From: Smithella sp.
GTDB taxonomy: Bacteria > Desulfobacterota > Syntrophia > Syntrophales > Smithellaceae
Assembly (NCBI GenBank): GCA_035524255.1
Contig: DATKPG010000012.1
Span: 95,163 to 159,162, forward strand
Direction: 5' to 3'
DNA: 64,000 bases
The translations under genes and the position numbers were made by a program. Position 1 is the first letter of the stretch, and each line of letters begins with the position of its first letter. This document shows, in pieces, positions 15,209 to 38,777 of the stretch. Below the pieces are notes generated by a model. The model searched no databases, was not told where the DNA came from, and saw nothing but the letters and a program-made list of their open reading frames with translations.

Positions 15209-15662
15209 TGCTTACTCCTTGTGGCATCAAAGCAGGCGCGTAGGCGCGTCCCTGCAAATTTCTCATATGTCCCCATTTCTCCACAATAACATTATCTGAT
15301 TCCACCTTAACGAACTTGCGTCCCGGCTGCCGTTTGATATGACTTGCCGCCTTCTGATATTCGGAAGCGTAGGATCCCAAAAGCGGCGTCAGGTCGGGAT
15401 GGGTCAGGCCGTTCCACGCGATGCCGAAGACGACACCGGAGGGAGATACGTATTCCCGGACTGTCATTGTTTCGGACTGGAACACGTGAACGGTGTATTT
15501 TGAAGATGTTATCGTGGTGCTTCGCACAGCCGAAAGAGCCTTCCTGTTCGTCGCGATCGAATCGGTTGATTCGCCGAGAGTGGCGTAAGCCTGCCCGACA
15601 AAAAGTACAATCAAGGCAAGACTAAAACAGAGTAACAGACTTGAGAGTTTTCTTGTTTTCAT
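15192..15662 (-). CDS. Secreted hypothetical protein, translationally coupled to the lipoprotein gene
   Basis: The ATG at 15662 lies 9 nt after GGAGGA. The signal peptide is MKTRKLSSLLLCFSLALIVLFVGQAYA. Its 3' end overlaps the downstream lipoprotein start by 17 nt. I recall a similar DUF pair in proteobacteria but cannot verify that here. Confidence 0.6.
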   Translation of the reverse strand: MKTRKLSSLLLCFSLALIVLFVGQAYATLGESTDSIATNRKALSAVRSTTITSSKYTVHVFQSETMTVREYVSPSGVVFGIAWNGLTHPDLTPLLGSYASEYQKAASHIKRQPGRKFVKVESDNVIVEKWGHMRNLQGRAYAPALMPQGVSNDEIK

Positions 15663-15775
15663 AATCGTTATATCCTCCGGTTTCAAAGACTCTGACTCAA
15701 AGGCCCCAAAGAAACGTTTCTAAAATATTTTTACAACATTATTGTACTTTCTTTTGCTAAAAAGTCGAGCGCTAA

Positions 15776-16465
15776 TTATTTACTTTTTTCAAACTTTGAC
15801 TTATCCGCGCCGCATACAGGACACGTCCATGTTTGGGGCAAATCTTCAAATTTTGTTCCGGGGGCAATGCCGTTATCCGGATCGCCTTTGGCTTCGTCAT
15901 AAACATAGCCGCAAACACTGCAGACATAACTGGCGGAGGCATGGGAATCGGCGGAAGTTTCATCTTTCGCGTAAGTGGGCGCTGTTTTCGGCGATTTGCC
16001 TCCCTTGACATTTTGATAATAGGCGTATGTCATGGGTTCGGCATCGCTTATGAGATCGCAATCGACAATCTGGCCGACAAAGATAGTATGCGTGCCGCAA
16101 TCCAATTCTTTTTCCAGTTCAACTTCCAGATAGGAGACCGTATTTTCCAGGATTATGGGCACATTGGTGACGCCTGTTTTTATTTTTACATTTTGCAGTT
16201 TATTGACATTGTGTCCGCTTTTAAAGCCGAAAAGACCGATGAAAGTCATGGGGGTTGCCTCGGACAGGATAGAGACAACAAATTTGCGGCTGAGTTTTAT
16301 TAATTCATGAGTGTAATTTTCTTTATTGATGCTGATGGCCACTGTCGCCGGATTCGATGTGACTTGAAACAGGGCGTTGGCAATCTGACCGTTGAATTTA
16401 CCGTCCTGACCTGAAGTGACGATGTATAGACCGTAACTGATTTTGTGAATAGCTGCTCTGTTCAT
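15776..16465 (-). CDS. Flavin reductase domain fused to rubredoxin (high-molecular-weight rubredoxin type)
   Basis: The N-terminal flavin-reductase-like domain ([20 protein letters not shown]) is fused to a C-terminal rubredoxin, [12 protein letters not shown]...[13 protein letters not shown], which carries two CxxC pairs. Confidence 0.85.
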
Positions 16466-16768
16466 TCATTCTCCTTTATAGCGGTTTTTTATGACGTTGT
16501 TTATAACTCAATTTTAATTTCAGCGCTATTAATTTATAGGGTTGATCTCATATTGATCTGGTATGATTTCAGGGGATTTTTTCTTTTGACAAAAGAGACC
16601 TTTTCTTATAGTCAAAATAAATTAAAATAATAATCGGGCCTTACAATTTTCTGCCACGATTTATTGTAATCCGGGCGTCTGTGCCAATACTGAAATAAAT
16701 TTATATACAGGGATCATTATACACTTTCCGGTTTATTGTCGAGGCGCTCGGAAAGAGAAAGAATAATT

Positions 16769-17359
16769 ATGAAATATCAGGAATTTATAAAGCGCGATCA
16801 TTTTAATTTCGAAGAAATTCTCGCTTTTGCTTACGGCAAACTGGTGACTGACCCTCCCGAACATTTTGAAGCGAGACTTCCCGCGCCTCCCTTTCTCATG
16901 ATTGATCGCATATTGCTGATTGAAAGCGACGGAAAGAAGGGGAAAATAATCGCCGAACAGGATATCCGGCTGGACGCGTGGTATTTCCAATGCCATTTTC
17001 AGGGCGATCCGGTGCAGCCCGGATGTCTTGGCGTGGACGGAATATGGCAGTTGCTTGGTTTTTTCTGTGTCTGGAATGGATCGCTGGGGACGGGCAGGGC
17101 ACTGGGGTGCGGCGAAGTTGCTTTCAACGGTCAGATTCGCCCGTTTAACAAATGTGTCCGTTTTGAAATTGATGTGCGGCGTTATTCGCGTTTGAAGGAA
17201 TCGGGCGCGAGCGTCGTAATCGGAGACGGACGCATTTATGTGGATGATGAATTAATTGCTACTGTCGGGCAGGCTCGCACAGGTGTTTTTAAGGAGATTG
17301 CTTACAGCGATTACCCGCTTCGTTCGAAACATTCTATCGGTGGCATCATGGAGCGGTGA
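16769..17359 (+). CDS. fabA: FabA-type 3-hydroxyacyl-ACP dehydratase/isomerase
   Basis: FabA active-site block FFQCHFQGDPVQPGCLGVDGIWQLLGFF. The ATG at 16769 is chosen; the upstream part of the ORF has no similarity. Confidence 0.85.
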   Translation: MKYQEFIKRDHFNFEEILAFAYGKLVTDPPEHFEARLPAPPFLMIDRILLIESDGKKGKIIAEQDIRLDAWYFQCHFQGDPVQPGCLGVDGIWQLLGFFCVWNGSLGTGRALGCGEVAFNGQIRPFNKCVRFEIDVRRYSRLKESGASVVIGDGRIYVDDELIATVGQARTGVFKEIAYSDYPLRSKHSIGGIMER

Positions 17360-17856
17360 GCTATCAGATCATTAAAACGGTTGACCGTGTTTCACAGGAT
17401 CCGTTAAAGAGTACTTGTCATATTTTATTTACAGGAAATAATTTGAATATTATAAAAAAATCAGCACTTTATTTTGCCCGGAAAGAATTCTGCAGGGCCG
17501 CGATAAATGATCACGCTGATCTGAGCATTTTTAAAAAGAAACTTACCGGCACCGTAATTACCGGTCTTATTATAATATTTATCAGTTACTTTCTTGGCAT
17601 ACCGGCCGCCTTTATAGTGGGGGTAATTGCCGCCTGGTTGCATAGCCCCGCGTTCGGGGTTATCGGAATTCCTTTGGCTTACGGTCTTTCCTGGTTGCTT
17701 TTGATGCTGGGTATTTATCTTGCCGGTCCTCAATACGGGAGGGCGCTTAGCCGCTTCGTCGTACGGGTTATACTGGAAAAAATTCTCGGCAATGAAGTTA
17801 TCAGGCCCGAATCAACGCGCGTGCAAGATTCAAAGCCGGGCACAACAAAAAAATAA
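17356..17856 (+). CDS. Membrane protein of unknown function (lipid locus)
   Basis: 166 aa. Its GTG start overlaps the fabA stop (GTGA). It has three to four hydrophobic helices (VITGLIIIFISYFLGIPAAFIVGVIAAWL...). No motif recognised. Confidence 0.5.
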   Translation: MSYQIIKTVDRVSQDPLKSTCHILFTGNNLNIIKKSALYFARKEFCRAAINDHADLSIFKKKLTGTVITGLIIIFISYFLGIPAAFIVGVIAAWLHSPAFGVIGIPLAYGLSWLLLMLGIYLAGPQYGRALSRFVVRVILEKILGNEVIRPESTRVQDSKPGTTKK

Positions 17857-17895
17857 AGAGAACTTGAAAAGTCAGATTAAGAACAGGAGTATTAG

Positions 17896-18165
17896 ATGAG
17901 TCAGATTGAAGAATTGATCAGTGAACTTAAGGTTAAAATTATTGAAACACTGGGACTGATTGACGTTGGGCCCGAAGATATCGGGGATGACGCTCAACTC
18001 GTAGGCGGCGATATGGGGATTGATTCCATTGATGTGCTTGAATTGGTGATGATGATTGAAAAAGACTACGGTGTCAGAATCGACAGCAAGGAGCTGGGCG
18101 TTAAAGTTTTTGCTTCTGTGCGCGCGCTGGCCACACACATTTCCGGGAATCAGAAAAAAGGTTAA
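17896..18165 (+). CDS. Acyl carrier protein (ACP-1 of the lipid locus)
   Basis: 89 aa with the phosphopantetheine attachment motif DMGIDSIDVLELVMMIE. Confidence 0.85.
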   Translation: MSQIEELISELKVKIIETLGLIDVGPEDIGDDAQLVGGDMGIDSIDVLELVMMIEKDYGVRIDSKELGVKVFASVRALATHISGNQKKG

Positions 18166-18211
18166 TGCATCGCTTTCGCTAAAATTTGATCTTTTTTAAG
18201 CTTTAATTTCT

Positions 18212-19564
18212 ATGATAAAAGTACTGCTCATTTCAGCGAATACTCTGAGAATTCCCTATCCGGTATATCCGCTGGGGCTTGATTACGTAGCCGGTTCCCT
18301 GGATTCCCGTTATCAGACCAAAATCGCGGACTTAAACGTTTTTGCCAATCCGGATGAGCTGGATACATTGATCAGAGAATTTTCTCCCGATTATGCCTGC
18401 GTATCCATCAGGAATATCGATAATACCGATGTAACAAACAGCAGAGGCTTTCTGTCTGAGTATCAAAGTTTAGTCGGCCGCATCAGGGCAAATTCGAATG
18501 CCCGGATCATTTTAGGCGGCTGCGGTTTTACGATCTTTCCTGTTGAGTTCATGCGGGCGCTGGATGCCGATTATGGAATAGCCGGCGAAGGCGAGAGATT
18601 ACCCGTGCTTCTGGACGCGCTCGCGAAAAACAGGGATGTCAAACAAATACCCGGTGTTTTGACAAAAGAAAAAACGGACTTTGTTTATGAACCCTGGGAT
18701 GGCGAAATTAAAAGACGTTTTGATCCGGCAAATCCCCACACGCAATTTTATCTGTCTTACGGCGGCATGCTCAATCTGCAAACAAAAAGAGGATGTCCGT
18801 TTCATTGCTCCTACTGCACTTATCCCCATATCGAAGGCGCCCGGATGCGGTTTTTCCCGCCGGTTGAAGTAGCCCGCGAGGCCCGCGAATTGCAGGATTC
18901 CGGCGCCAAGTATATTTTCATAACCGATTCCGCGCTCAACGCCAGTTATGAGCACAGCTCTCAGGTCGCGAAAGCCTTTATGCACGCCCGCGTGTCTATT
19001 CCGTGGGGCGGTTTTTTTGCGCCCACCATTCCTCCCGATGATTATTTCAAACAGATGGCGGATGCCGGATTAACGCATGTTGAATTCGGCACGGAATCTT
19101 TGTCGGATACGGTGCTTAAAAATTTGCGCAAACCTTTTTCTTCCGGTGATGTTTTGATTGCCCATGAAAAAGCGCTTAAAGCCTCTTTGCACGTTGCTCA
19201 TTATCTTCTGTTAGGCGGTCCGGGCGAAAACAAACAGACTCTGCAAAAAACACTGACCGGCCTCGATAGCCTTTCGCGGGCGGTATTCTTTTTTTTCTGC
19301 GGCATCCGCGTTTATCCGCACACGGGTTTGTATGATATAGCGCTTCGGGAAGGTCAGATTACCGCGGGCCAGAATATCCTGCCGCCGGTATTTTACCGTT
19401 CAGGGGAAATATCCGCCGCGGAAATTATGCAGACGGTGGAAAATCACGCCAACGGCCGTCTGAACTGGATTATCGGCGCCGGTGAAGCTAAGGCAACCCG
19501 TGTTTTGCCCAAACTCTACAGGAGAGGGTTTACAGGTCCCCTGTGGGAATATCTGATTCAATAA
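18212..19564 (+). CDS. B12-binding-domain radical SAM enzyme (class B type)
   Basis: The N-terminal B12-binding-like domain is MIKVLLISAN..YPLGLDYVAGSL. The radical SAM motif is KRGCPFHCSYCTY. 450 aa. Confidence 0.85.
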   Translation: MIKVLLISANTLRIPYPVYPLGLDYVAGSLDSRYQTKIADLNVFANPDELDTLIREFSPDYACVSIRNIDNTDVTNSRGFLSEYQSLVGRIRANSNARIILGGCGFTIFPVEFMRALDADYGIAGEGERLPVLLDALAKNRDVKQIPGVLTKEKTDFVYEPWDGEIKRRFDPANPHTQFYLSYGGMLNLQTKRGCPFHCSYCTYPHIEGARMRFFPPVEVAREARELQDSGAKYIFITDSALNASYEHSSQVAKAFMHARVSIPWGGFFAPTIPPDDYFKQMADAGLTHVEFGTESLSDTVLKNLRKPFSSGDVLIAHEKALKASLHVAHYLLLGGPGENKQTLQKTLTGLDSLSRAVFFFFCGIRVYPHTGLYDIALREGQITAGQNILPPVFYRSGEISAAEIMQTVENHANGRLNWIIGAGEAKATRVLPKLYRRGFTGPLWEYLIQ

Positions 19565-19709
19565 AGACGGATTGACACAATTCCAAAGTAATTTCCCCGC
19601 CCTTTTCCAGGAAAGGGATTGAGGGATGGTGAAACATCAGGATTTTTCTCTTGTGTCCAATGCCTGCGGAGTTGTCACATCATGACGGAGGTGGATGAGA
19701 CTATCCATG

Positions 19710-20498
19710 AAAAAAATATTAACGTCTGCAAGCCCCGCTCAAATCACGGGAATAATTCTTTTGTCTGCCGCCGCGGTTGTTTTCTTTATGAATTCTCTGC
19801 TTTCGGCGGCTATTGCCCTTTTATATATTGTGCTTTGTGTGGCCGCTTCTTTTTTCCCGCGAAGCAATTTTTTCCTGCCTGTGATCAGCCGCGGCAATAC
19901 CGGCGAAAATTTGGTCGCGCTGACTTTTGATGATGGTCCTTCACTTCCGACAACAGGACAAATAATGGCCCTGCTGGATCGGTATTCGGTGAAGGCAACT
20001 TTTTTTGTTTCCGGCGCCAATGCCTTGAAACATCCGGAAATAATCAGGGAAATAATTGCCCGCGGCCACGCCATTGGCAATCATTCATTTAATCATAATC
20101 CTTTTTTGATGCTGGGAAGTTATCATTATCTTTATCAGGAAATATTCAGGACTCAGGAAGTTTTGAAGAAAATGGGCGTCAATGCTTTGGCCTTTCGTCC
20201 CCCTGTGGGAATCATCAGCCCCAAACTTCCCGCCGTTCTGGATCGACTGGGTTTGTTTTGTGTAACTTTTAACTGCCGCGCTTTTGATGCGGGCAATCGC
20301 CGTGTTAAAAATCTTGCATCCAGAATACTCAAAAAGGTTAAGGCCGACGATATCATTTTGCTGCACGATGTGCCGCCGCGCCGTTTAGAAGACGGCGCTG
20401 TTTTATTGCCGGAAATCGAAAAGATATTGCAGGGGCTTGCGGTTAAGGGCTTAAAAATTGTTCCCCTTTCCAGTTTAATTCACCGGGATATTAATTAA
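19710..20498 (+). CDS. Membrane-anchored polysaccharide deacetylase (NodB homology) family protein
   Basis: Two N-terminal hydrophobic helices are followed by the NodB motifs TFDDGP and HSFNH. The ATG at 19710 (MKKILTS) is preferred. Confidence 0.8.
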   Translation, partial: KKILTSASPAQITGIILLSAAAVVFFMNSLLSAAIALLYIVLCVAASFFPRSNFFLPVISRGNTGENLVALTFDDGPSLPTTGQIMALLDRYSVKATFFVSGANALKHPEIIREIIARGHAIGNHSFNHNPFLMLGSYHYLYQEIFRTQEVLKKMGVNALAFRPPVGIISPKLPAVLDRLGLFCVTFNCRAFDAGNRRVKNLASRILKKVKADDIILLHDVPPRRLEDGAVLLPEIEKILQGLAVKGLKIVPLSSLIHRDIN

Positions 20499-20524
20499 GA
20501 ACCGCCGTTTTTGCCATGCTCAGC

Positions 20525-21385
20525 TTACTGGGACTTGAGTCCCGCCATCTTTTTTATCCATTCGGGGGCAACCTTACGGCCGGTGATTTTTTGGAACCCT
20601 ACCGGGAATAATCGCTTAAGCCAGTCATACACGTAGGCATCCGCTCCGACCATGATGCGCACTTTGTCCTTTTTGATTCCGGCAATAATAATTTTTGCCG
20701 CCTTGTCCGCTGATGTTTTTGCCATAACCTGATTGAAAACGGCAACGCTTCCTTCTCTTGCAAGGGAGGGGTCCGAGGCTTTGTAGTACTTGGCGTTGTT
20801 GGCAATGTTCGTCTTAATTCCGCCGGGGTGCACACACGAGACTTTAACGCGGGTATCAGAGAGTTCCTGCGCCAGCGTTTCAGTGAATCCCCGGACGGCA
20901 AACTTTGCCGTACAGTAAGGACCGTTATTCGGATTGGTGAAAATACCATTAACGCTGCTGATATTGACGATGTGAGCGGAGTCCTGCTTTTTAAGGTACG
21001 GGAGGAACTCCTTGCATCCATAAATCACGCCCCACAAATTGATACCCATGAGCCACTCAAAATCCTCATAGGTCACATCATCCAGCGTTTCCATGATGGC
21101 GACCCCCGCATTATTGATGATGATATGAACAGCGCCGTGAGTGTTAACCACCTCGTTTGCATAGCGCCTGACCTGCTCGCGGTCCGCGGCGTCTACCTTG
21201 TGGGTGCTGACCCGCACATCTTTGTTTCGCCTATGCACCATATCGGCGGTTTCCTTGAGACCGGCCTCGTTAAGATCTGATATTGCCATGTGGCAGCCTT
21301 CATCAGCCAGATTAAGCGCAAGCGCCCTTCCGATGCCGGATGCGGCGCCGGTAATTCCCGCGACCCTGTTTTTTAGATCCTTCAT
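20525..21385 (-). CDS. Short-chain dehydrogenase/reductase (candidate ketoreductase of the locus)
   Basis: Cofactor motif ITGAASGIGRALA, NNAG, and catalytic YCTAKFAV (YxxxK). It is convergent with the deacetylase gene, with 26 nt between the stops. Confidence 0.9.
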   Translation of the reverse strand: MKDLKNRVAGITGAASGIGRALALNLADEGCHMAISDLNEAGLKETADMVHRRNKDVRVSTHKVDAADREQVRRYANEVVNTHGAVHIIINNAGVAIMETLDDVTYEDFEWLMGINLWGVIYGCKEFLPYLKKQDSAHIVNISSVNGIFTNPNNGPYCTAKFAVRGFTETLAQELSDTRVKVSCVHPGGIKTNIANNAKYYKASDPSLAREGSVAVFNQVMAKTSADKAAKIIIAGIKKDKVRIMVGADAYVYDWLKRLFPVGFQKITGRKVAPEWIKKMAGLKSQ

Positions 21386-21798
21386 GGCGGTCTCCTTTTA
21401 TGAGCGAATGTGGTCTTGAAATATCGTTTTTCTTCCCGGTCTTATCTGTTTAAAACAGTCCGGATGATTTGACCTGAAAACGTTGCAATTTTTAAAGCGA
21501 TTTTTAGAATTCTGATGACCTGAACTAAATAAGCAAATCAAATTATCTTGTCAATGTAAATAATAGGGCGCAATCAATTGCGGCATAAACATGATAATAA
21601 CCAGCCGTTAAATTCACGTTATTTTTACGTTAAGTTACCGGTATCATTCGGGTAAAAAACTTCTTTTGAGGCCGATTAGAATATTTGGTCTTATTAACAT
21701 CATTTTTGATGGGTGTTTAACTTGCCAAATTAACTGCATTTTTTCATGGATAAACAGGATTTGGCGAATAAATTAAATATTGACCTTATAAAAAAATT

Positions 21799-21827
21799 TT
21801 GATTGAAAAAACAATCAATGATATGAA
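21799..21827 (+). promoter_or_regulatory. Candidate promoter overlapped by a perfect palindromic operator
   Basis: The promoter reads TTGATT (21799-21804), a 17-nt spacer, then TGaTATGAA (extended -10, 21819-21827). The perfect inverted repeat TTGATTG-AAAAAA-CAATCAA (21799-21818) covers the -35 element and the spacer. It lies about 50 nt upstream of the FabZ-like gene. Confidence 0.35.
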
Positions 21828-21878
21828 TTAGTACTTTTGCGTATTCATTTAACTTTGACATGAGCCAATGGGGTTTAT

Positions 21879-22256
21879 TTGTTGGAAAGTCAATGGAGTT
21901 TATTAAAAGAGATAAAAGTAACTAATGATCATTATATTGAAGCATTGGCGGATGTGCCGGCTGATTCTCCTTGGTTTTTGGGCCATTTCCCCGGCGAGCC
22001 GATTCTTCCCGGAATCGCTTTAGTTTATATCGTCGAACAGGCAATTATCCGGGACGCATTGAAAAAAGGGGAGCCGGTTCAATTAAAGGAGTTCAAAAGA
22101 GTAAGATTTACACAGCCGGTGCGGCCCCGGGAAACGCTGACGGTCAGCATAACCTGTGAGGAAAACGGTGAAGACGTTTTGTTTTCTTTTAAAGTGGCAA
22201 GTCAGGGAAATATTGTGTGCAGCGGTTTAATAAACGCGAAAAAGATAAATAGTTAA
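21879..22256 (+). CDS. FabZ-like hot-dog-fold dehydratase
   Basis: Motif WFLGHFPGEPILPGIALVYIVEQA (compare FabZ HFPxxPvmPG). TTG start; the exact start is uncertain. Confidence 0.75.
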   Translation: MLESQWSLLKEIKVTNDHYIEALADVPADSPWFLGHFPGEPILPGIALVYIVEQAIIRDALKKGEPVQLKEFKRVRFTQPVRPRETLTVSITCEENGEDVLFSFKVASQGNIVCSGLINAKKINS

Positions 22257-22286
22257 ATATAAATAAGCATAGAAGGAGGGGTTGTG

Positions 22287-22559
22287 ATGCCTGATAACCA
22301 GGATACCAAGGGCATTATACGGCGCGTGGCCGAAATAATTATTGAGGAACTCAAATTAGAAGACGTTACCGCGGACACATTTAATCCGGATATGGATTTG
22401 GTGGATGAATTGGGCATTGACAGCATGGATCTGGCGACCATTGCATTAGTCCTGCAGGATGAGTACAAGATCGCCATAGATGAAGATGATTATCCCAAGT
22501 TGAAAACCATTCGCCTGATCGCCGGTTACATTGAAGAAAAACTTGCCGAGAAAAAATAA
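22287..22559 (+). CDS. Acyl carrier protein (ACP-2 of the lipid locus)
   Basis: Motif ELGIDSMDLATIALVLQDEY. A GAAGGAGGGG Shine-Dalgarno sequence lies 7 nt upstream of the ATG at 22287. Confidence 0.85.
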   Translation: MPDNQDTKGIIRRVAEIIIEELKLEDVTADTFNPDMDLVDELGIDSMDLATIALVLQDEYKIAIDEDDYPKLKTIRLIAGYIEEKLAEKK

Positions 22560-23660
22560 TTGATTGAAGATAAAAGGTCTATGCCTATTCGTGATAAAGC
22601 AGCTCTGCAATCAGTCAAACCCGGATTTTCCGAACTCCTGTCTCATCCGGAGGTCAAAGCGCGCTGGGAAAAGGTGAGAAAATATTTTTTTCTGCGGGAA
22701 TCGACTTATGATATGTCCAACCGCTGCAATATTCGCTGTGACGGCTGTTATTACTTTGAAGGAGAAAAACAGTTCGCCCGTGAGATTGGCGATACCCTTG
22801 CGTGGCGCGAGCTTATGCAGGCCGAAAAAGCGCGCGGCATTACTTACGTCGTTCTGGCGGGAGCAGAGCCTTCTTTGGTGCCGGAGCTTCTGGATGTGTG
22901 CTATCAGGAAATGCCGCTGGGCAGCATTGCCACCAATGGTTTCAAAAAAATATCTTCTTCAGTCGGCTATAAACTGCATATTTCCGTCTGGGGTAATGAC
23001 GAAACCAGTTTAAGAATCAGAAAGGCCAAGGACCTTTTAAAAAAACAGATCGAGAATTACGAAAATGATCCGCGGGCGGTTTTTGTTTACACCTTTACCC
23101 GGGAAAATATAGATGAGGTAAAAGAAGTCGCCGCGCAGCTTGTCGCCCATGACTGTAAACTGACCTTTAATGTTTTTTCATCGCCGGTTGGTTACACGGG
23201 AAATCTGCGGCATGATGACGCGTCGTTCAACGATACACGGCAGATGATGATGGAGCTTCTGAATAAATATCCGCGAAATATTATTTTTTCCGCCTACAAC
23301 GCCGTGGCGCATACCCATCAAAAAAGTTTGCATGATCTTTACAGTTGTTCCTATCCCCGTCAGAATGCTTCGCGGGATATCGGGTTGGGGAGGTCTTTCC
23401 GGCAATACAGGACAGACCTTAATTGGGACAGATCGGTCGCCTGCTGTGTGCCGGATACGGATTGCGACGACTGCCGTCATTACGCCGCCGGTTCCTCAAT
23501 CGTCACGGCGCGCCTGTACCGTCATGTGAACGATCTGGCTACTTTTAAATCCTGGCTCGATTATGTTGATACCTATCTGGCTGTCTGGGTCATGGGATAC
23601 GAGAAGGGCGAGAATCTTTGCGCCGAAATTATAAATCCGCCGCGGGCGGCGACAAGTTAG
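22560..23660 (+). CDS. Radical SAM enzyme, paralog A (no B12 domain)
   Basis: Motifs CNIRCDGCYY, AGAEPSL and ATNG, plus a C-terminal Cys cluster ACCVPDTDCDDCRHY. The start is either TTG 22560, which abuts the ACP stop, or ATG 22581. Confidence 0.8.
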   Translation: MIEDKRSMPIRDKAALQSVKPGFSELLSHPEVKARWEKVRKYFFLRESTYDMSNRCNIRCDGCYYFEGEKQFAREIGDTLAWRELMQAEKARGITYVVLAGAEPSLVPELLDVCYQEMPLGSIATNGFKKISSSVGYKLHISVWGNDETSLRIRKAKDLLKKQIENYENDPRAVFVYTFTRENIDEVKEVAAQLVAHDCKLTFNVFSSPVGYTGNLRHDDASFNDTRQMMMELLNKYPRNIIFSAYNAVAHTHQKSLHDLYSCSYPRQNASRDIGLGRSFRQYRTDLNWDRSVACCVPDTDCDDCRHYAAGSSIVTARLYRHVNDLATFKSWLDYVDTYLAVWVMGYEKGENLCAEIINPPRAATS

Positions 23661-23729
23661 AAACGATATTAAAATATTCACCAGATGGGTTGGAATACCT
23701 GATTTTAAAATTCTGTCGGAGCAGTATTG

Positions 23730-24728
23730 ATGAAAACGGTTAGTTCTTTGCTGGATAAAAACTGGTACGAAAGATACAGGCAAATTTCAAATCTTAATAT
23801 CCGCAGTTCCATATACGATGTAACCAACCGCTGCAATTTGCGCTGCAAAGGCTGTTTTTTCTTTTCTTCGGGAGAACATCAGGCGGCCGAAGAAGAGATG
23901 GATATAAAAAAATGGGAAGATTTTATCGACCGTGAAAAAGAACGGGGCGTGAATCTGGCGATTTTAATAGGCGGCGAGCCGACGCTTTGCATGGATCGCG
24001 TCGAGGCTTTCTATAAGCGCCTGCCTACTTATTGCGCCACCAACGGTCTGATTAAAGTTCCCCGGGAAAAGTTTCCCGATATGATGGTGGGAATTTCGCT
24101 ATGGGGCGGCGGCGAAGAAGAGAAAGTCCTCCGCGGGCGCGACACGTTTGCCGTATCCAGTAAGAATTATGCCGGAGATGCTTATACGTATTATCTTTAT
24201 ACGTTGACTCCCCGCCAGGTGGGGAAGATGGAACCTGTCATCAAAAGAATTGCCGATGTCGGCTTGAAAGTGCATCTGCAGCTTTTATCGAATGACGAAG
24301 GCGTTGACGGCTTTTCGTGGCGCGAAGGCGAACTCAAAGATTTACGTCATGAAATGGACGAGATGCTGGATCAATATCCGCAGACTGTAATTTCCTGCAA
24401 ATATTATCATGAGATCATTACCACGGGGAAAATGATGGGACGGAGCTTTGGGTGGAATGAATGCCCCTCCGTTACGGAATCTCTGGATAATAGAGAAAAC
24501 CGGCCCCGCCGTTTAATCCATTTTGCCCGCTGGGCCTCAGATTTAAAAACGGTTCATCGCTGCTGCACGTCGGCAACGCGCGATTGCTCTACCTGTAAAG
24601 ACGGAGCGGCGCATATGAGCTGGGTCATGGTCAACAAACGCGAACATCTGAAATCGGCCAAAGATTTACAAAACTGGATCGAAGTCTATGAAATGTTTGC
24701 CAAGTTGTACCACTTTATTCCTTGGTAA
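23730..24728 (+). CDS. Radical SAM enzyme, paralog B
   Basis: Motifs CNLRCKGCFF, GGEPTL and ATNG, plus a C-terminal cluster RCCTSATRDCSTCKDGAAH. It aligns with paralog A along its whole length. Confidence 0.8.
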   Translation: MKTVSSLLDKNWYERYRQISNLNIRSSIYDVTNRCNLRCKGCFFFSSGEHQAAEEEMDIKKWEDFIDREKERGVNLAILIGGEPTLCMDRVEAFYKRLPTYCATNGLIKVPREKFPDMMVGISLWGGGEEEKVLRGRDTFAVSSKNYAGDAYTYYLYTLTPRQVGKMEPVIKRIADVGLKVHLQLLSNDEGVDGFSWREGELKDLRHEMDEMLDQYPQTVISCKYYHEIITTGKMMGRSFGWNECPSVTESLDNRENRPRRLIHFARWASDLKTVHRCCTSATRDCSTCKDGAAHMSWVMVNKREHLKSAKDLQNWIEVYEMFAKLYHFIPW

Positions 24729-24828
24729 TCCCCAACAATTTTTGATATAGGCACATAATTATTAACGTCTTTGGGTTATCTTGACCCCATGAGATGATTT
24801 TTTATATTTCTCGGAAACATGGTTTGCT

Positions 24829-26079
24829 ATGGGTTTAAAGAAAACATTAATACTGGGCTACGACGCTGTGTCTTCTTTGGGAACGGATTTGGATGTCCAA
24901 TGGCAGCGGGCTGTGGCCGGAAATTGCGGAATAGGAAATCTTACCAGATTTCCTATTGACGCCGCCTTCCCTGTGCGTGTTGCCGGTGAAGTGGCGGATA
25001 TTGATACGCGTCCGTATCCTTTTTTACAGCCGAGGGATCTGGCGCACTGGACATCGCCCATCTTCAAATACGGCATGCTGGTTGTTCACCGCGCTCTGGA
25101 AAAAAGCAAAATTATCATTACGCCTGAAATAGCGCCGCGGGTCGCGATTACCTTCAGTTCGGCGGTTGGCGGTTTGGACGCGGTTCTGCAGGCTGATCGT
25201 CTGATGATTACGGAAGGGAAAATGCCTCATCCTTTTACGAACCCCAACTCCTGCATTAATATGGCCGGCGGCAAGGTTTCCATTCTTACGGGCGCGACAG
25301 GTCCTATCTGCTCGACGATCACGGCTTGCGCTACAGGAATTACATCGCTGATCATAGGCCGAATGCTGCTTGAGCAAAACATGGCGGATGTGGTTATCGG
25401 CGGCGCGGTGGATTTTCCTCTGGTTGAGCCGATCGTTGCCGGATTTGCCACAATGAACGGCGCTTACCGTCCGAAAGAAGGACAGCCCCACGAGCCGCCG
25501 GAAAAAACGAGCAGGCCTTTTTCTGTTCACAGGCGGGGGTTTGTTGTCTCCGAAGGAGCCGGTTGCGTCATTATGGCAACGGAAGATTTTGCCAAATCCC
25601 ATGGGTTGGAATCAAAAATAGAACTGGCCGGATGCGCCATGACATCGGATGCCAGCCATTTTGTTTCGCCTAATTTGACAACGGTGCAAAGATGCATCGA
25701 AGAAACTATTGCCGACGCGGGACTTCGGCCGGCGGATATTGACGCGGTCAACGCGCACGCGACTTCGACCAAAATAGGCGATAAGGTGGAGGCGGATGCC
25801 CTGCGTAATGTTTTCGGCGATAAAGTGCCGCCGGTATCGGCGAACAAATCACAACTCGGTCACGCGATGGGCGCCTCCAGCGCCATCGAAGCCATACTGG
25901 CTATGGAAGGCATGCTTAAAGAGAGCGTGCTGCCCACGATTAATTATGTTCCAGACCCCGAAATTGAAATTGACTGTGTTGGCGAAGGAGCCAGAAAATT
26001 AAAACAGGAGTTTGTGCTGAAAAACGCGTTTGGTTTCGGCGGATGCAATTCCTGCCTGATTTTGCGCAGACTTGAATAG
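24829..26079 (+). CDS. Beta-ketoacyl-ACP synthase (FabF/FabB-like), KS-1
   Basis: Active-site Cys in STITACATG, the two His in VNAHATSTKIGD and NKSQLGHAMGASS, and a C-terminal NAFGFGGCN. Confidence 0.9.
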   Translation: MGLKKTLILGYDAVSSLGTDLDVQWQRAVAGNCGIGNLTRFPIDAAFPVRVAGEVADIDTRPYPFLQPRDLAHWTSPIFKYGMLVVHRALEKSKIIITPEIAPRVAITFSSAVGGLDAVLQADRLMITEGKMPHPFTNPNSCINMAGGKVSILTGATGPICSTITACATGITSLIIGRMLLEQNMADVVIGGAVDFPLVEPIVAGFATMNGAYRPKEGQPHEPPEKTSRPFSVHRRGFVVSEGAGCVIMATEDFAKSHGLESKIELAGCAMTSDASHFVSPNLTTVQRCIEETIADAGLRPADIDAVNAHATSTKIGDKVEADALRNVFGDKVPPVSANKSQLGHAMGASSAIEAILAMEGMLKESVLPTINYVPDPEIEIDCVGEGARKLKQEFVLKNAFGFGGCNSCLILRRLE

Positions 26080-26096
26080 AGGATAATTGTCATATT

Positions 26097-27362
26097 ATGA
26101 AAGCCCCGAAAAACAGAAAAGTTTTTATCGTCGGTTACGGCGCGGCCACCCCGCTGGGGAGCACATTTGAAAAAACATGGAAAAGAGCGATTAAGGGTGA
26201 GGCCGGTTTCCGCAAAGTGACCCGATGTAATGTAGAATCAGCCTGCGATATCGTCGGAGAGATACCGGACTGGTACCCACTGGAGCTTGATTTTACCGAC
26301 GCGAAAGAAGTGTACAACTGGAACGCGGCTTTTGTGATTTTAACGATGGCCGTTTGCAAGGAGGCCCTGCAAAATTCGGGCATTTCCATTGACGCCCAGA
26401 TTGCTCCGCGGATGGCATGCCTTGTCGGTTCGGCGCTCAACGGGTCGGATGCTTTTCGCATTGCCGTTCACGATCTGGAACATCGCGGGCCGCTGAGGGT
26501 CAGTCCTTATTTGTTGCCTAATCTGTGCGCGAATCTTCCTTCCGGCAAAGCGGGAATGCTTTTGAAATTTACCGGCCCTATTTTTTCGCCGCAGGGCGCC
26601 TGCGCTTCGGGAAACTACGCGATAGGCATCGGAGCAAGAATGATCAGGGATGGTGATTGCGATTTTGTCCTGGCCGGCGGCGCTGACGCTCCCATTCTGC
26701 CGGAACTGATTCACGGTTTTGCCAATATGAATGCCACGATCAAGGTTAATCCCAAAGACCGCGCTTATCAAAATCCCGCGCTGGCTTCGAGGCCTTTCAG
26801 CGCTGACCGCAAGGGTTTTGTCCTTTCCGAAGGCGCGGGCGTTGTTGTTCTGGCCGCGGAAGAGGCGATCAAAGCTTACGGGCTTAAACCGAAGGCCGAA
26901 GTTTTGGGCATCGGATGGGCATCGGATGCCCATCATTACACCAGTCCCAACATGTCAACGATTATCCGCGCTATCAGAGAATCCATTGAGGATGCCGGAT
27001 TGAAACCGGAAGATGTTCAATATGTGAACGCCCATGGCACGTCCACGCCCAAAGGCGACAGCACGGAGATAAAATGTCTGCGGGAAGTGTTTTGCAAAAA
27101 GCTTGAAAAAATTCCCGTATCATCAAACAAATCTCAGTTGGGGCATACCCTCGGCGCGACCGCGGCCATCGAAGCCGCTCTGACGATTGAAGGAATGAAC
27201 AAGGGCATAATCCTGCCCACGATCAACCATGTGCCGGATCCCGAATTTGCCGATATCGATGTAGTGCCTGATGATGCCCGCAAACAAAAATATGAAATTG
27301 CTCTTTCCAATGCTTTTGGTTTTGGCGGAACAAATTGCTGTGTCATTTTCAGAGGAGTATAA
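26097..27362 (+). CDS. Beta-ketoacyl-ACP synthase (FabF/FabB-like), KS-2
   Basis: Active-site Cys in PQGACASGNYAIG, the two His in VNAHGTSTPKGD and NKSQLGHTLGATA, and a C-terminal NAFGFGGTN. Confidence 0.9.
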   Translation: MKAPKNRKVFIVGYGAATPLGSTFEKTWKRAIKGEAGFRKVTRCNVESACDIVGEIPDWYPLELDFTDAKEVYNWNAAFVILTMAVCKEALQNSGISIDAQIAPRMACLVGSALNGSDAFRIAVHDLEHRGPLRVSPYLLPNLCANLPSGKAGMLLKFTGPIFSPQGACASGNYAIGIGARMIRDGDCDFVLAGGADAPILPELIHGFANMNATIKVNPKDRAYQNPALASRPFSADRKGFVLSEGAGVVVLAAEEAIKAYGLKPKAEVLGIGWASDAHHYTSPNMSTIIRAIRESIEDAGLKPEDVQYVNAHGTSTPKGDSTEIKCLREVFCKKLEKIPVSSNKSQLGHTLGATAAIEAALTIEGMNKGIILPTINHVPDPEFADIDVVPDDARKQKYEIALSNAFGFGGTNCCVIFRGV

Positions 27363-27364
27363 AA

Positions 27365-27844
27365 ATGAAACCCAAGCCATTTAAACCGGAAATGTACAAT
27401 AATGACGAGCGTTACACGCGGGACCTGACAACTGGTCTTGTCTGGCATCGTTCGCGATACCGGACATTATATGTTGATACGGATCGCTCGCAAGTGGTTT
27501 ATCATTCCAATTATCTGCGTTATTTCGAATTCGGCCGAACTTCCCTGATGCGCGATATCGCTTATTCCTACAAAGAAATCGAGGAAAGCGGATATGTATA
27601 TCCCATCTTCGATTTAGGCATCAGTTTTTATCAACCCCTGTATTACGACGATTTGATGTATATCTACACGCGGCCGGTAAACCTGGAGAGAGTGCGTTTA
27701 CAATTTGACTACCTGATAACGCACGCGGAAAAAGGACATATCATCTGTATCGGCTTCACAAAGCATTGCGCTTTGAATCTGGCCGGAACTCCCGTGGCCA
27801 TCGATCCGAAAACGGTTCAATTATGGAAATCGTTTCCCGTTTAA
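27365..27844 (+). CDS. 4HBT/YbgC-type acyl thioesterase
   Basis: Motif YVDTDRSQVVYHSNYLRYFEFGRTSLMR. The ATG at 27365 lies 7 nt after AGAGGAG and 2 nt after the KS-2 stop. Confidence 0.8.
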   Translation: MKPKPFKPEMYNNDERYTRDLTTGLVWHRSRYRTLYVDTDRSQVVYHSNYLRYFEFGRTSLMRDIAYSYKEIEESGYVYPIFDLGISFYQPLYYDDLMYIYTRPVNLERVRLQFDYLITHAEKGHIICIGFTKHCALNLAGTPVAIDPKTVQLWKSFPV

Positions 27845-28683
27845 ATCAAACCAAGCGGCATCACTGTGATATCGAGGTGTATCCCTATCTGCGGGATCAC
27901 CATTTAGAGGGAGGGGTCATTCTGCCGGCCGTGGAAGAGATGATTGTTCTGGCAGGCGCCGTTAAAACCCATTATCCGCAGATCGATATAAATTGTATGC
28001 AAGGCGCGACCTTTCCGCGTTTTTTATCAATTCCGCCGGATACAACGCGCCTGCCGGTAATGATTGATATGAAAGAATCCGGTGACGGCGGGATCAGGGC
28101 TTCGCTTATCACTACGGTTACATCAAAAACCGGCGATATCAGGCGCACCGTCGAACACGCGAGTGTGGAGTTTCTCTTTGCTGATAACGCTGCGTCATTG
28201 CCGCCTCCTTTTCCCATCATGAAGAATCTGGAAGGAGGTTGCATCAGCGTGCCCTCGGAGGCTATTTACCGTGAACTTGTTCCTTTTGGAGAGGCTTATC
28301 AAAACATCATGGGTGATTTATCGGTTTTGCCTGACGGAGCCCATGCTTTTGTTTCCGGAGGTGATCATGAGGCGGATGAAAGTTTGCTCGGTTCTCCGTT
28401 TCCACTGGATGCGACCCTGCACGCGGCCTGCGTATGGGGGCAGCGCTTTGCCGGTATGGTTTCCTTCCCTGTTGGATTTGGAAAAAGAGTCATTTATCAA
28501 AAGACGATAAAAGGAAATAAGTATCTGGGACGCGTTGTGCCTGCGGGCGTCTCCGGGGAATTGTTGATCTTTAACGCCTGGATTTATGATTTGAATGATG
28601 TAATCTGTGAAAGCATCAGCGGTATGGAGATGAGAGATGTGTCGCGGGGACGATTAAGTCCGCCTGAGTGGATCAGAGCTTAA
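27823..28683 (+). CDS. PKS-type (double hot-dog) dehydratase-like protein
   Basis: HHLEGGVILP matches the PKS dehydratase HxxxGxxxxP motif exactly. About 286 aa. The ATG at 27823 overlaps the thioesterase 3' end by 22 nt. Confidence 0.6.
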   Translation: MEIVSRLNQTKRHHCDIEVYPYLRDHHLEGGVILPAVEEMIVLAGAVKTHYPQIDINCMQGATFPRFLSIPPDTTRLPVMIDMKESGDGGIRASLITTVTSKTGDIRRTVEHASVEFLFADNAASLPPPFPIMKNLEGGCISVPSEAIYRELVPFGEAYQNIMGDLSVLPDGAHAFVSGGDHEADESLLGSPFPLDATLHAACVWGQRFAGMVSFPVGFGKRVIYQKTIKGNKYLGRVVPAGVSGELLIFNAWIYDLNDVICESISGMEMRDVSRGRLSPPEWIRA

Positions 28684-28758
28684 TACGAGGTTACCTGTCA
28701 TGGCCATTATTCTTTCAAGTTATGACGGGACTATGGTTGATTTGCCGGGAATTGAAGC

Positions 28759-29349
28759 ATGAGTAAAATTATCTTAATTTATTGTTTCGCTTATTTTGCC
28801 GGTTCCGTAAATTTTGCCATTATTTTTTTAAAGCTTGCCGGTAAGGCAGACCCGCGGTTGAGCTTCAGCGGCAACGCCGGTACCACCAACGTCTACCGCC
28901 AGGCGGGGATTTTATGGGCGGCAGTTGTCTTCGGGCTGGATATCGGCCGGGCCATAGCCGTGGCGTTTGTAGCGATGTATTTTTTAAACGAGGATTTGCT
29001 TCCCTGGACGTGTTTTTTTCTTATACTGGGAAATAGTTTCCCCTGCTTTCACCGTTTTCGCGGCGGCAAAGGAGTGGCTAACTATTTGGGGTTTACCCTT
29101 TTGGTTGCGCCATGGACGGCTGCATTGGCAGCGGCAATCTGGCTTGTTGTTTATGGAATCGTCCGGATTCCTTTTATCGCCTCATTTTTCATGGTTTTTA
29201 TTCTGGCCTGCGGACAGGCATTAGCTTTTCACTGGCATTTTAGCGCGGTAACAGGCGCGTCTGCGACATTTCTGCTTGTCTTATTTAATCACAGAAAAAA
29301 TATTGCCAGCTACGGGAAAACGACCGAACCGCAGATACACCATAAATGA
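28759..29349 (+). CDS. plsY: Glycerol-3-phosphate acyltransferase PlsY (acyl-phosphate dependent)
   Basis: N-terminal motif FAGSVNFAII and the central PlsY motif FHRFRGGKGVANYLG. A multi-pass membrane protein of 196 aa. Confidence 0.9.
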   Translation: MSKIILIYCFAYFAGSVNFAIIFLKLAGKADPRLSFSGNAGTTNVYRQAGILWAAVVFGLDIGRAIAVAFVAMYFLNEDLLPWTCFFLILGNSFPCFHRFRGGKGVANYLGFTLLVAPWTAALAAAIWLVVYGIVRIPFIASFFMVFILACGQALAFHWHFSAVTGASATFLLVLFNHRKNIASYGKTTEPQIHHK

Positions 29350-29459: not shown

Positions 29460-30386
29460 TTATTGCGTGCAGCTGTTTAGTCTTTCGTTAAATTCTTCCG
29501 CGGTAAAGCTATATTCCTGAGTTCCGTAGCTCTCTATCGAAAAAGAAGCGCAGACACTACCCATATTTGCGCACTGCACGATATCCTTGCCGTGAACCAG
29601 ACCGCTAAGCAGACCGCCCCGGTAAGAATCTCCCGCGCCTGTCGGGTCGACCACCTTTTTCACCCTGAAGGCGGGAATGGCAATGTCGCGCTCACGCGTG
29701 GATATCTGTGAGCCCGATTCTCCCAAAGTGGTGATGATGGTGCCGGTTATCTCCAACAATGCTTTTTTGTTAAGCCCTGTCTTGCTGATGATCAGGCTCA
29801 ATTCATAATCGTTGACGATCAGTATCCGGCATCCCTCAATGGCCTGAATCAAGTCCATTTTATCCCACAGGGGCAGGGACTGACCGGGATCAAGGATATA
29901 GTCTATTCCCTTTTTTTTGCAGGCGCGCGGGTAATTAACCATGTCTTCGAAATTGCCGGGAGAAACTATAACAATGGTATTTTCAGGGCGGAGTTTACTA
30001 AAATCGAGCGTTGATTGATATTTCATTGCTCCGGGATTGAATCCGGTAATTTGATTATCGGAACGGTCGGTGGTGATGTAAGCCCCTGCCGTGAATTCGT
30101 CGGCAATAATTTTGATGTTTTCCGTGGACAATCCGTTTTTTGCCAGCCATTTGAAATACTTCTGGTAATCATGTCCGATGGTGGCGCAAATCAGTGGTCT
30201 TTCACCCATTAGAGTAAGCGCGTAAGCTATATTGCCCGCAGTGCCGCCAAATTTTTCCTTCAGGCCGTTTACCTGGAAACAAACATTCAGGACGTGAATT
30301 TTGTCGGGCAGAATATGGTCGGAAAATTTTCCGGGGAAATCCATAATTCTGTCGTATGCCATTGATCCGGAAACAATAATATTCAT
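29460..30386 (-). CDS. PfkB-family carbohydrate/nucleoside kinase
   Basis: PfkB signature DPTGAGDSYRGGLLSG near the C-terminus and N-terminal MNIIVSGSMAYD. The ATG at 30386 is preferred to the TTG at 30404. Confidence 0.8.
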   Translation of the reverse strand: MNIIVSGSMAYDRIMDFPGKFSDHILPDKIHVLNVCFQVNGLKEKFGGTAGNIAYALTLMGERPLICATIGHDYQKYFKWLAKNGLSTENIKIIADEFTAGAYITTDRSDNQITGFNPGAMKYQSTLDFSKLRPENTIVIVSPGNFEDMVNYPRACKKKGIDYILDPGQSLPLWDKMDLIQAIEGCRILIVNDYELSLIISKTGLNKKALLEITGTIITTLGESGSQISTRERDIAIPAFRVKKVVDPTGAGDSYRGGLLSGLVHGKDIVQCANMGSVCASFSIESYGTQEYSFTAEEFNERLNSCTQ

Positions 30387-38765: not shown

Positions 38766-38777
38766 TGTTGATTTAAC

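Follow-up and report, generated by a model that had tools for sequence, protein, structure and literature searches.

This analysis concerns a lipid-themed locus of fifteen open reading frames (ORFs), spanning 12.6 kb at positions 16736-29349 of the window, by which is meant the whole 64,000-nucleotide stretch of Smithella DNA (contig DATKPG010000012.1) that was analysed. The host is a syntroph of the phylum Desulfobacterota rather than an anammox bacterium. The locus itself is a real and strongly constrained biosynthetic cluster, and it belongs to the widespread TIGR04072 'ladderane-like/aryl-polyene-like' cluster family of anaerobes, which has yet to be characterised. What, then, does such a cluster make? 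The reading that we favour, with confidence slightly better than even, is that of a self-contained type II fatty-acid/polyketide-like assembly line, in which an acyl chain is tailored by radical S-adenosylmethionine (rSAM) enzymes and passed to a glycerolipid. The evidence lies in the identities of the genes, in their intact catalytic motifs, in a core that is collinear across phyla and in homology to the genes kuste3339-3342 and kuste3351 of the anammox bacterium Kuenenia.

All fifteen ORFs of the initial annotation exist, and the domains that it assigned to their products were borne out by Pfam and NCBIfam profile searches, with the small membrane protein giving no family match. Its view of the locus as a single lipid-themed biosynthetic unit is supported. 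The proteins that it listed as absent are indeed missing from the 12.6 kb in the same searches, which found no FabD, FabH or FabI-type protein, no chain-length factor (CLF), no LolA or MMPL protein and no Pfa-type protein. The regions that it described as AT-rich have a GC content of 0.376 (16.5-17.0 kb) and 0.324 (21.5-22.0 kb), and an Rfam search of both (E<=1) gave no match. Several of its ORFs, however, are maximal reading frames rather than likely genes from their true starts. Gene calls on the Logan contig L001, which has the same gene order and an identical B12-binding rSAM enzyme (B12-rSAM), give a FabA of 196 amino acids and a deacetylase of 263. The features, with the acyl carrier proteins (ACPs) and ketosynthases (KS) numbered in order, are as follows.

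16736..17359 (+), likely start 16769: FabA-type 3-hydroxyacyl-ACP dehydratase/isomerase (NF003509)
17356..17856 (+): conserved small membrane protein without a known family, its core spanning ~115-135 amino acids, with hydrophobic segments in the alignment
17896..18165 (+): ACP1, a kuste3340-type, PRK09184-like carrier (PF00550)
18212..19564 (+): B12-rSAM, a member of TIGR04072 (PF02310, PF04055 and TIGR04072)
19695..20498 (+): membrane-anchored NodB/CE4 deacetylase (PF01522, 97 bits)
20525..21385 (-): classical short-chain dehydrogenase/reductase (SDR), convergent (PF00106)
21386..21878: AT-rich 490-nt spacer, GC 0.324
21879..22256 (+): FabZ-like/ApeI-like single hot-dog dehydratase (PF07977, weak, 39.5 bits)
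22284..22559 (+): ACP2 (PF00550), its stop codon abutting the start of rSAMa
22560..23660 (+): rSAMa, a radical SAM protein with CxxxCxxC and a C-terminal CCx6CxxC, in no curated family
23727..24728 (+): rSAMb, a paralog of rSAMa with CxxxCxxC and CCx6CxxC
24829..26079 (+): KS1, FabF-like ketosynthase (PF00109 and PF02801)
26097..27362 (+): KS2, FabF-like ketosynthase (fabF model)
27335..27844 (+): YbgC/4HBT hot-dog thioesterase (TIGR00051, 73.5 bits against a cutoff of 68.7)
27766..28683 (+): polyketide synthase (PKS)-type double hot-dog dehydratase, PS-DH (PF14765, 24.6 bits against a cutoff of 23.7)
28759..29349 (+): divergent PlsY-family acyltransferase (PF02660, 121 bits)

Fundamental to the case for a dedicated pathway is the conservation of this arrangement. 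Relatives of the B12-rSAM are encoded in at least 596 stretches picked up by a scan that took a single genome for each species, and the best 80 of these loci were compared through tblastn of the window proteins and through ORF labelling of selected loci. They come from Smithella/Smithellaceae, Syntrophaceae, Desulfobacterales, Spirochaetota/Leptospirales and one gammaproteobacterial metagenome-assembled genome (MAG), and they divide into 58 Smithellaceae-like loci and 22 distant ones (Desulfobacterales, Spirochaetota, Leptospirales and the gammaproteobacterial MAG); the counts for each gene take in only those loci with enough flank. A core of ACP1, B12-rSAM, FabZ-like dehydratase, ACP2, rSAMa, rSAMb, two active KS, thioesterase and PKS-type dehydratase recurs on one strand and in one order in dozens of loci that together span no fewer than three phyla, often with a divergent PlsY next to it, and the arrangement exceeds what chance would produce. 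ACP1 is present in 54/55 Smithellaceae-like and 17/21 distant loci, the FabZ-like gene and ACP2 each in 45/47 and 18/19, rSAMa in 44/46 and 16/17, rSAMb in 42/44 and 14/15, KS1 in 36/39 and 13/14, KS2 in 32/37 and 13/14, the thioesterase in 31/36 and 13/14, and the PKS-type dehydratase in 30/35 and 12/13. The small membrane protein, which has no Pfam or NCBIfam match, occurs in 52/53 Smithellaceae-like loci and in Desulfobacterales loci as well. The deacetylase is found in 55/56 Smithellaceae-like loci and in 4/21 of the distant ones, and FabA in 36/51 and 0/20, respectively.

The gene that ties the locus to a named family is the B12-rSAM. Its product matches TIGR04072 (rSAM_ladder_B12) along the full model, positions 1-443 of 443, with 379.8 bits against a cutoff of 360, a cutoff that orthologs from Desulfosarcina widdelii (383 bits) and from a Spirochaetota MAG (394 bits) likewise exceed, so that the locus is not fully the orphan that it had been called. 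TIGR04072 we take to have been based on a gene neighbourhood with an ACP, a FabF-like protein and a dehydratase, and the window and its relatives show such a neighbourhood. The protein is 87-92% identical to NCBI entries named 'lipid biosynthesis B12-binding/radical SAM protein [Smithella sp.]' and 53-87% identical across the compared loci, while the cysteines of its CxxxCxxC motif (C195, C199 and C202) are unchanged in all of 42 diverse homologs. The family is a large one, since an exhaustive HMMER search gave 643 clusters at 50% identity with E<=1e-30. After TIGR04072 the next-best families are BzaD, TsrM and PhpK, and the best match in the PDB is TsrM (6wte, E 6e-27). Methyl transfer would thus be the probable rather than the certain activity, because other B12-rSAMs carry out cyclisation or ring contraction. 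Mid-chain, 10-methyl-branched acids were considered as a possible product of the enzyme, and evidence was found neither for nor against them. Such acids occur in anammox bacteria and in Desulfobacter, and oxygen-independent routes to them through SAM methylases already exist.

The other two radical SAM enzymes, rSAMa and rSAMb, form a pair of paralogs (27% identity, E 6e-36), of which rSAMb is among the best-conserved products of the cluster (71-96% identity). Seven of its cysteines, C36, C40, C43, C279, C280, C287 and C290, are invariant. Databases name rSAMb merely 'radical SAM protein', and rSAMa has only weak N-terminal matches to rSAM/SPASM families in Pfam and NCBIfam. A sequence search of the PDB with rSAMb brought up no similarity outside the cluster-binding motif, and its marginal matches are to Tes (NF045702, 29.8 bits) and 7tol. 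Tail-to-tail coupling of the Mss/Tes kind was considered and set aside, as the likeness is to the generic motif alone. An AlphaFold2 model of rSAMb, of low confidence (pLDDT 57), aligns in Foldseek with SPASM/twitch structures in the PDB at a TM of ~0.4 (anSME, SuiB, CteB and PqqE), with anSME as the top fold match, and this is a hint that the pair may be SPASM/twitch-like. Desulfonema limicola, a cultured organism like D. widdelii, also carries rSAMb.

The remaining enzymes of the core provide for the assembly of a chain. ACP1 and ACP2 both have the serine in a DS(I/M)D motif, are 32% identical to one another and fall below all NCBIfam equivalog cutoffs. ACP1 comes closest to the PRK09184 carrier model (NF006617, 65.7 bits, just below the cutoff of 70), which presumably belongs to aryl-polyene-type clusters. 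In Desulfobacterales and Spirochaetota the orthologs of the PKS-type dehydratase reach ~500 amino acids and are fused to a 4'-phosphopantetheinyl transferase (PPTase; PF01648 ACPS), direct evidence for a dedicated role of the ACPs as carriers. The two KS, 43% identical to each other, score 317 bits (KS1) and 379 bits (KS2) against a fabF cutoff of 494, and their closest PDB structures are the FabF enzymes 4ls5 and 1j3n, respectively. As had been claimed, both keep the Cys-His-His triad, which was read from the translations (TACATG, NAHATST and LGHAMG in KS1; GACASG, NAHGTST and LGHTLG in KS2) along with the lysine and the gating phenylalanine, and they therefore do not form a KS/CLF-like pair. 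Among the dehydratases, FabA passes the equivalog model NF003509 with 199 bits against 124 and keeps its catalytic His (CHF) and Asp (GCLGVD). The FabZ-like protein has the GHFP His and the IVEQ Glu, and its ApeI-like match of 26.8 bits lies below the cutoff of 28.5. In the PKS-type dehydratase the expected HxxxGxxxxP reads HHLEGGVILP, with a DATLH motif downstream.

From this wealth of dehydratases and the want of a reductase a polyunsaturated chain had been predicted, and here the argument is weak. No ketoreductase is found in the conserved core; housekeeping FabG must therefore serve the ACPs, and a housekeeping enoyl reductase could do so too.

At the far end of the cluster stands PlsY, and the linkage first noted in the window recurs in Smithellaceae, Spirochaetota/Leptospirales and Desulfosarcina. 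Its product does not reach the equivalog TIGR00023 (104 bits against a cutoff of 137). In an alignment with 5xj5, the PlsY of Aquifex, the motifs SGNxGxxN and GGKGVA are retained and GN replaces the canonical GH; all 31 of the cluster-linked PlsY proteins have GN(S/T/R/A)(F/Y)P(C/V)(F/L)H where the Aquifex enzyme has GHMYPVF. In three phyla the gene either overlaps that of the dehydratase or comes immediately after it; this shared position, together with the common GN motif, speaks for a functional connection and for a PlsY subfamily of its own. Overall PlsY is present in 25/34 Smithellaceae-like and 4/12 distant loci.

The locus had also been divided into two blocks, with the SDR closing the first and a 490-nt gap before the second, and this part of the initial annotation has to be revised. 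The SDR occurs in 4/50 Smithellaceae-like and 0/20 distant loci and, with the gap, is best described as a recent lineage-specific insertion. In L082 fourteen genes run contiguously with neither SDR nor gap, and hence the two blocks are one operon that an insertion has split. The insertion brought with it a terminator-like hairpin and the AT-rich spacer, which has a promoter-like site at 21483-21510 and presumably carries the promoter for the genes downstream. The spacer, itself missing in L082, contains no conserved small ORF. The junction between the deacetylase and FabZ-like genes appears as a hot spot for insertion (window 20499-21878; L003 12448-13752; L082 8062-8195), being occupied by the SDR and AT-rich spacer in the window and four close loci, by a small reverse ORF in L003, and by only a ~135-nt intergenic gap in L082. 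A mobile element was also considered, and plasmid sequences yielded no megablast match to the second block.

What do the relatives add to the version seen in the window? Spirochaetota have a phytoene-dehydrogenase-like flavoprotein directly upstream of the B12-rSAM, and Leptospirales a deacetylase fused to a SAM-methyltransferase domain (L081 11347-12807). In Desulfobacterales a 727-amino-acid KS-CLF-type fusion, whose best match is PRK09185, lies between ACP1 and the B12-rSAM, and these loci also carry a divergent ApeP-like dehydratase, a FabG-like reductase (37% identical to kuste3341) and LolA. The cultured D. widdelii (AP021875.1, 2.90-2.92 Mb; L084) has the full set with PlsY, a glycosyltransferase-like gene, an MMPL-methyltransferase fusion (L084 17757-20789) and the deacetylase. 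The methyltransferase fusions are a hint of further methylation and export steps that are missing from the window. With LolA, MMPL-methyltransferase, ApeP-like dehydratase, FabG, KS-CLF and a PPTase domain among its members, the cluster family is aryl-polyene-like in its machinery and export, and the Smithella version is a reduced form of it. The earlier exclusion of an aryl-polyene locus thus holds for the reduced Smithella version and fails for the family, whose other members do carry LolA, MMPL-methyltransferase, ApeP-like, FabG and KS-CLF genes.

The second point of reference is provided by the candidate genes for ladderane synthesis in anammox bacteria. Kuenenia has three fatty-acid clusters that contain rSAM genes, some of them strikingly syntenic with clusters of Desulfotalea, Geobacter and Pelobacter, which do not make ladderanes (PMC2649909). 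Cluster I (kuste3603-3608), now the main focus of research, has been described as exclusive to anammox bacteria and comprises amxACP, amxFabZ, the pair amxFabF2/amxFabFmut, a phytoene-dehydrogenase homolog and a B12-rSAM (PMC10139942; 10.64898/2026.05.19.726425). Ladderanes are reported from anammox bacteria only (PMC10139942, PMC9902471), antiSMASH-type 'ladderane' clusters of unknown function are routinely reported in Desulfobacterota and other phyla (PMC9902471), and a 2026 review describes the chemistry as still unknown (PMC13459092). The statement that no product had been tied to such clusters agrees with the literature (PMC2649909, PMC4790861, PMC13459092, PMC9902471).

The Kuenenia proteins were compared as N-terminal fragments of ~128 amino acids (the short ACPs at full length), translated from the synthetic genes of a supplementary table. 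Within these limits kuste3342 matches the B12-rSAM of the window (42% over 129 amino acids, E 6e-27), kuste3340 matches ACP1 (41% over 83 amino acids, E 4e-15) and kuste3351 matches the deacetylase (E 3e-11). The N-terminus of kuste3343 resembles rSAMb over 69 amino acids (36%, E 1e-8), mainly in the cluster-binding motif, and amxFabZ is 28% identical to the FabZ-like protein (E 2e-10). The 128-amino-acid N-termini of kuste3608 and kuste2803, in contrast, have no significant match to any window protein. The kinship to ladderane candidates and to their deltaproteobacterial look-alikes that had been suspected is therefore of a particular kind: since kuste3342, kuste3340 and kuste3351 match and kuste3608 and kuste2803 do not, the window belongs to the cluster type that anammox bacteria share with anaerobes that make no ladderanes (kuste3339-3342, kuste3351), and the suggested relation does not extend to the anammox-specific Cluster I. 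Pfam found no amine-oxidase/phytoene-dehydrogenase domain within 16.7-29.3 kb. For both KS1 and KS2 canonical FabF outranks the structure 9s5h, which, judged solely by the name of its molecule, is likely an anammox FabF heterodimer. As to the exclusiveness of Cluster I, D. widdelii encodes a second B12-binding protein of 419 amino acids with a CRYNCYPC motif (L084 1945-3204 (-)), the N-terminus of which is 33% identical to kuste3608 over 120 amino acids (E 1e-10) and 34% identical to kuste2803 over 77, and clusters of Desulfobacterales therefore seem to include relatives of the 'anammox-exclusive' Cluster I type of B12-rSAM.

How might these proteins work together? What follows is our inference throughout, from the substrate through each reaction to the end product. 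ACP1 and ACP2, as dedicated carriers, would hold the growing chain. KS1 and KS2 would extend it from malonyl units, with housekeeping FabD providing the loading and housekeeping FabG the ketoreduction, and double bonds would be set by FabA and by the FabZ/ApeI-like and PKS-type dehydratases. The B12-rSAM would most probably C-methylate the ACP1-bound chain, another change at an unactivated carbon being possible, and rSAMa and rSAMb may then perform a further radical step, either the formation of a C-C bond or a dehydrogenation. The thioesterase would release the chain and/or the divergent PlsY would move it onto glycerol-3-phosphate to give a specialised glycerolipid, which in the fuller versions of the cluster would be exported to the outer membrane via LolA and MMPL.

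A number of points weigh against such a rSAM-tailored glycerolipid. No experiment ties any member of the cluster family to a lipid, and when all 34 Kuenenia candidate genes, homologs of the present ones among them, were expressed heterologously no new fatty acid appeared (PMC4790861). The case for methyl transfer by the B12-rSAM comes solely from its nearest characterised relatives, whose family cutoffs it reaches to the extent of 12-33%, and the suggested fold of rSAMb comes from the low-confidence model described above. PlsY is not in 8/12 of the distant loci with enough flank, so that attachment to a glycerolipid may not be universal, and at least two Desulfobacterales loci (L070 and L077) have an ORF of alpha/beta-hydrolase size after the dehydratase, at the position of PlsY. 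Characterised PlsY enzymes use acyl-phosphate, and no PlsX is present in the locus. In the Smithella MAG loci L022 and L047, moreover, the first block, from FabA to the deacetylase, is present and the second is not found within 10 kb downstream, and the two halves are therefore separable modules. The small membrane gene is not labelled in the ORF list of L022.

Several other explanations have to be set beside the tailored glycerolipid. Rattray et al. proposed an anaerobic (poly)unsaturated fatty-acid or hydrocarbon pathway for the Kuenenia and Desulfotalea clusters (PMC2649909), and on this proposal FabA and a FabB-like KS would add cis double bonds and the rSAMs would be oxygen-independent desaturases. 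It gains from a FabA that passes its equivalog model, from three further dehydratases and two active KS in a cluster without enoyl reductase, from the inclusion among SPASM/twitch rSAMs of dehydrogenases such as anSME, the top fold match of rSAMb, and from the polyunsaturated hydrocarbons of D. psychrophila, which has a syntenic cluster (PMC2649909). The FabA gene, however, is confined to the Smithellaceae versions (0/20 distant loci) and the rSAM/KS core is kept without it; the window lacks the phytoene-dehydrogenase-like desaturase of other versions; and the missing reductase says little when the core has no ketoreductase either. To our knowledge no rSAM fatty-acyl desaturase has been described, and we regard this pathway as unlikely. 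Much the same standing, improbable and yet to be taken seriously, is given to an aryl-polyene-like protective pigment or antioxidant lipid that would be anchored in the outer membrane and would not be a bulk lipid, with Smithella holding the reduced form. Neither the window nor the inspected relatives showed genes for an aryl starter (ammonia lyase, adenylating enzyme), and the window has no CLF (no PF13723-type partner), no LolA and no MMPL. We also know of no aryl-polyene cluster with radical SAM enzymes. What speaks for the pigment is the near-cutoff ApeI-like match of the FabZ-like protein, the best match of ACP1 to PRK09184 (whose link to such clusters is, as said, our assumption), the ApeP-like dehydratase, LolA, MMPL and PRK09185-type KS-CLF fusion of the relatives, and flanking genes of oxidative-stress type, namely a flavin-reductase/rubredoxin gene in the window and rubrerythrin in D. 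widdelii.

Might the genes be no more than housekeeping fatty-acid synthesis (FabA, FabF, ACP and PlsY) lying beside unrelated rSAM genes? FabA does pass its equivalog, canonical FabF structures are the nearest to both KS and PlsY belongs to the core lipid genes, but both KS, both ACPs and PlsY stay below equivalog cutoffs, FabD, FabH, FabG, FabI and PlsX are missing from the locus, the rSAM genes lie in among the ACP and KS genes and are conserved along with them from phylum to phylum, and the fusion of dehydratase and PPTase in relatives suggests that the carrier proteins are dedicated ones; the idea is accordingly very unlikely. Still less probable is a pathway to ladderanes (cyclobutane lipids), or to a direct precursor of them, outside the anammox bacteria. 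The gene families are common with the Kuenenia candidates and TIGR04072 is named after ladderane candidates, and yet the host is a Smithella, ladderanes are an anammox product in all reports, and the B12-rSAM matches kuste3342, a type shared with D. psychrophila, which makes no ladderanes, rather than kuste3608 or kuste2803. Neither KS is the mutated CLF-like partner described for anammox bacteria (10.64898/2026.05.19.726425), and the window has no phytoene-dehydrogenase homolog. Least credible of all is that the rSAMs mature a ribosomally synthesised and post-translationally modified peptide (RiPP), with the fatty-acid-synthase-like genes lipidating the peptide or being unrelated to it. The weak N-terminal matches of rSAMa and rSAMb to the SPASM maturases PapB, SkfB and CteB would suit a RiPP, but these cover the generic cluster-binding region only, the two genes are invariably embedded between ACP and KS genes, and there is no room for a precursor gene, given that ACP2 abuts rSAMa and 66 nt separate rSAMa from rSAMb. 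The small ORFs of the 490-nt gap sit in a spacer that is absent from relatives. A RiPP system was rejected on this gene spacing and on the non-conserved spacer ORFs.

Of the genes around the cluster, one upstream has some claim to belong to it:
15776..16465 (-), divergent from FabA: flavin-reductase/rubredoxin fusion (PF01613 and PF00301)

The fusion gene is upstream in 43/49 Smithellaceae-like and 0/18 distant loci and stays by the first block where that block is alone (L022, L047). It may be a source of reductant for the rSAM/cobalamin enzymes, or it may reflect local synteny at the level of the family. Further upstream a gene pair encoding DUF2844 and DUF3443/Big_2 proteins (13685-15686 (-)) is common to the closest relatives only (L001-L003), and a YgiQ-family radical SAM protein at 4024-5736 (-) (PF08497, 395 bits) is unrelated to the cluster. 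Downstream, a PfkB-family kinase and an amidohydrolase lie at 29460-31882 (-). The latter has sub-cutoff matches to 5'-deoxyadenosine deaminase and to methylthioadenosine/S-adenosylhomocysteine (MTA/SAH) deaminase, enzymes that clear the by-products of radical SAM reactions, and was considered as a cluster member and rejected, being syntenic in 0/80 loci. The kinase recurs in two loci, and both genes are probably unrelated neighbours. A thiamine pyrophosphate (TPP) riboswitch (RF00059) is found at 38659-38778 (+), with 56.3 bits against a gathering threshold of 54.3, upstream of the ORFs 38949-39761 and 39761-40393.

The interest of the cluster lies in chemistry that is known neither for the ladderanes nor for the look-alike clusters. 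A literature search on TIGR04072, on rSAMs for methyl-branched fatty acids and on Smithella rSAM/ACP genes found no description of this locus type. It is conceivable, though on balance doubtful, that the module of ACP2, rSAMa, rSAMb, the two KS, thioesterase and dehydratase, together with the TIGR04072 enzyme, makes an unknown class of rSAM-tailored fatty-acyl glycerolipid, whether carbocyclic, cross-linked or multiply methylated. In that case a new family of enzymes, forming C-C bonds on ACP-bound chains, would be represented by the pair of small rSAMs, and a lipid that current inventories lack would occur widely among anaerobic Desulfobacterota and Spirochaetota. Were the product a new lipid, syntrophic and sulfate-reducing communities might also be traced by it as a biomarker. 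The compact and well-conserved core of ~10 genes separates the widely shared 'ladderane-like' gene pool from the anammox-specific part, and since this core is found in the cultured D. widdelii and D. limicola the question of the product can be tested without anammox cultures.

How does the cluster compare with systems that are better known? With the class B rSAM methyltransferases (BzaD, TsrM, PhpK and HpnR) the B12-rSAM has the same domain order in common, an N-terminal B12 domain followed by the rSAM core; its scores remain far beneath their cutoffs, as given above, and its substrate would instead be an ACP-bound acyl chain. The substrates of Tes, Mss and GrsA/B are completed lipid chains, and their genes are not known to sit between those for ACPs and KS. 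Together with Jaw5 these enzymes (Tes also as GDGT-MAS) are rSAMs proposed or shown to act on unactivated lipid carbons (PMC13459092, PMC13159169). The matches of rSAMb to Tes and 7tol cover the CxxxCxxC region only (E 0.0075 against the PDB) and give no sign of orthology. In the mycobacterial acpM-kasA-kasB genes a dedicated ACP is likewise followed by two tandem active FabF-type ketosynthases, but ACP2 and the KS of the window match the AcpM and KasA/KasB models far below cutoffs, no rSAM enzymes are involved and the taxa and products are unrelated, such that the analogy is one of layout only. Aryl-polyene clusters, in work attributed to Cimermancic (2014) and Grammbitter (2019), are said to have two ACPs, several KS, ApeI/ApeP-type dehydratases and a 4HBT-type thioesterase, and reportedly end with an acyltransferase onto a lipid anchor and with LolA/MMPL export. 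The acyltransferase of the window, by contrast, is a relative of PlsY and not an LPLAT, and the window has three rSAMs.

Closest of all are the anammox clusters. With the kuste3335-3352/Desulfotalea type the window has the B12-rSAM, an ACP, the CE4 deacetylase and a FabZ/FabA-type dehydratase in common, to which its fuller relatives add FabG, a phytoene-dehydrogenase-like flavoprotein, a glycosyltransferase, an MMPL-type protein and SAM methyltransferase domains. Where Kuenenia has one small rSAM (kuste3343) the window has two paralogs, and it also has two intact KS, neither of them mutated, with a YbgC thioesterase, a PKS-type dehydratase and a linked PlsY. The phenylacetyl-CoA ligase, glycosyltransferase, large membrane protein, VacJ-like protein, methylases and desaturase of kuste3335-3352 are not present in the window. 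Cluster I differs in that one member of the anammox FabF pair has a mutated catalytic triad, whereas KS1 and KS2 are both intact, and in having a desaturase homolog that the window does not, within a host of another kind. What is common to Cluster I and the window is the overall logic, with a private ACP, a variant of FabZ, a tandem pair of FabF proteins and a B12-rSAM.

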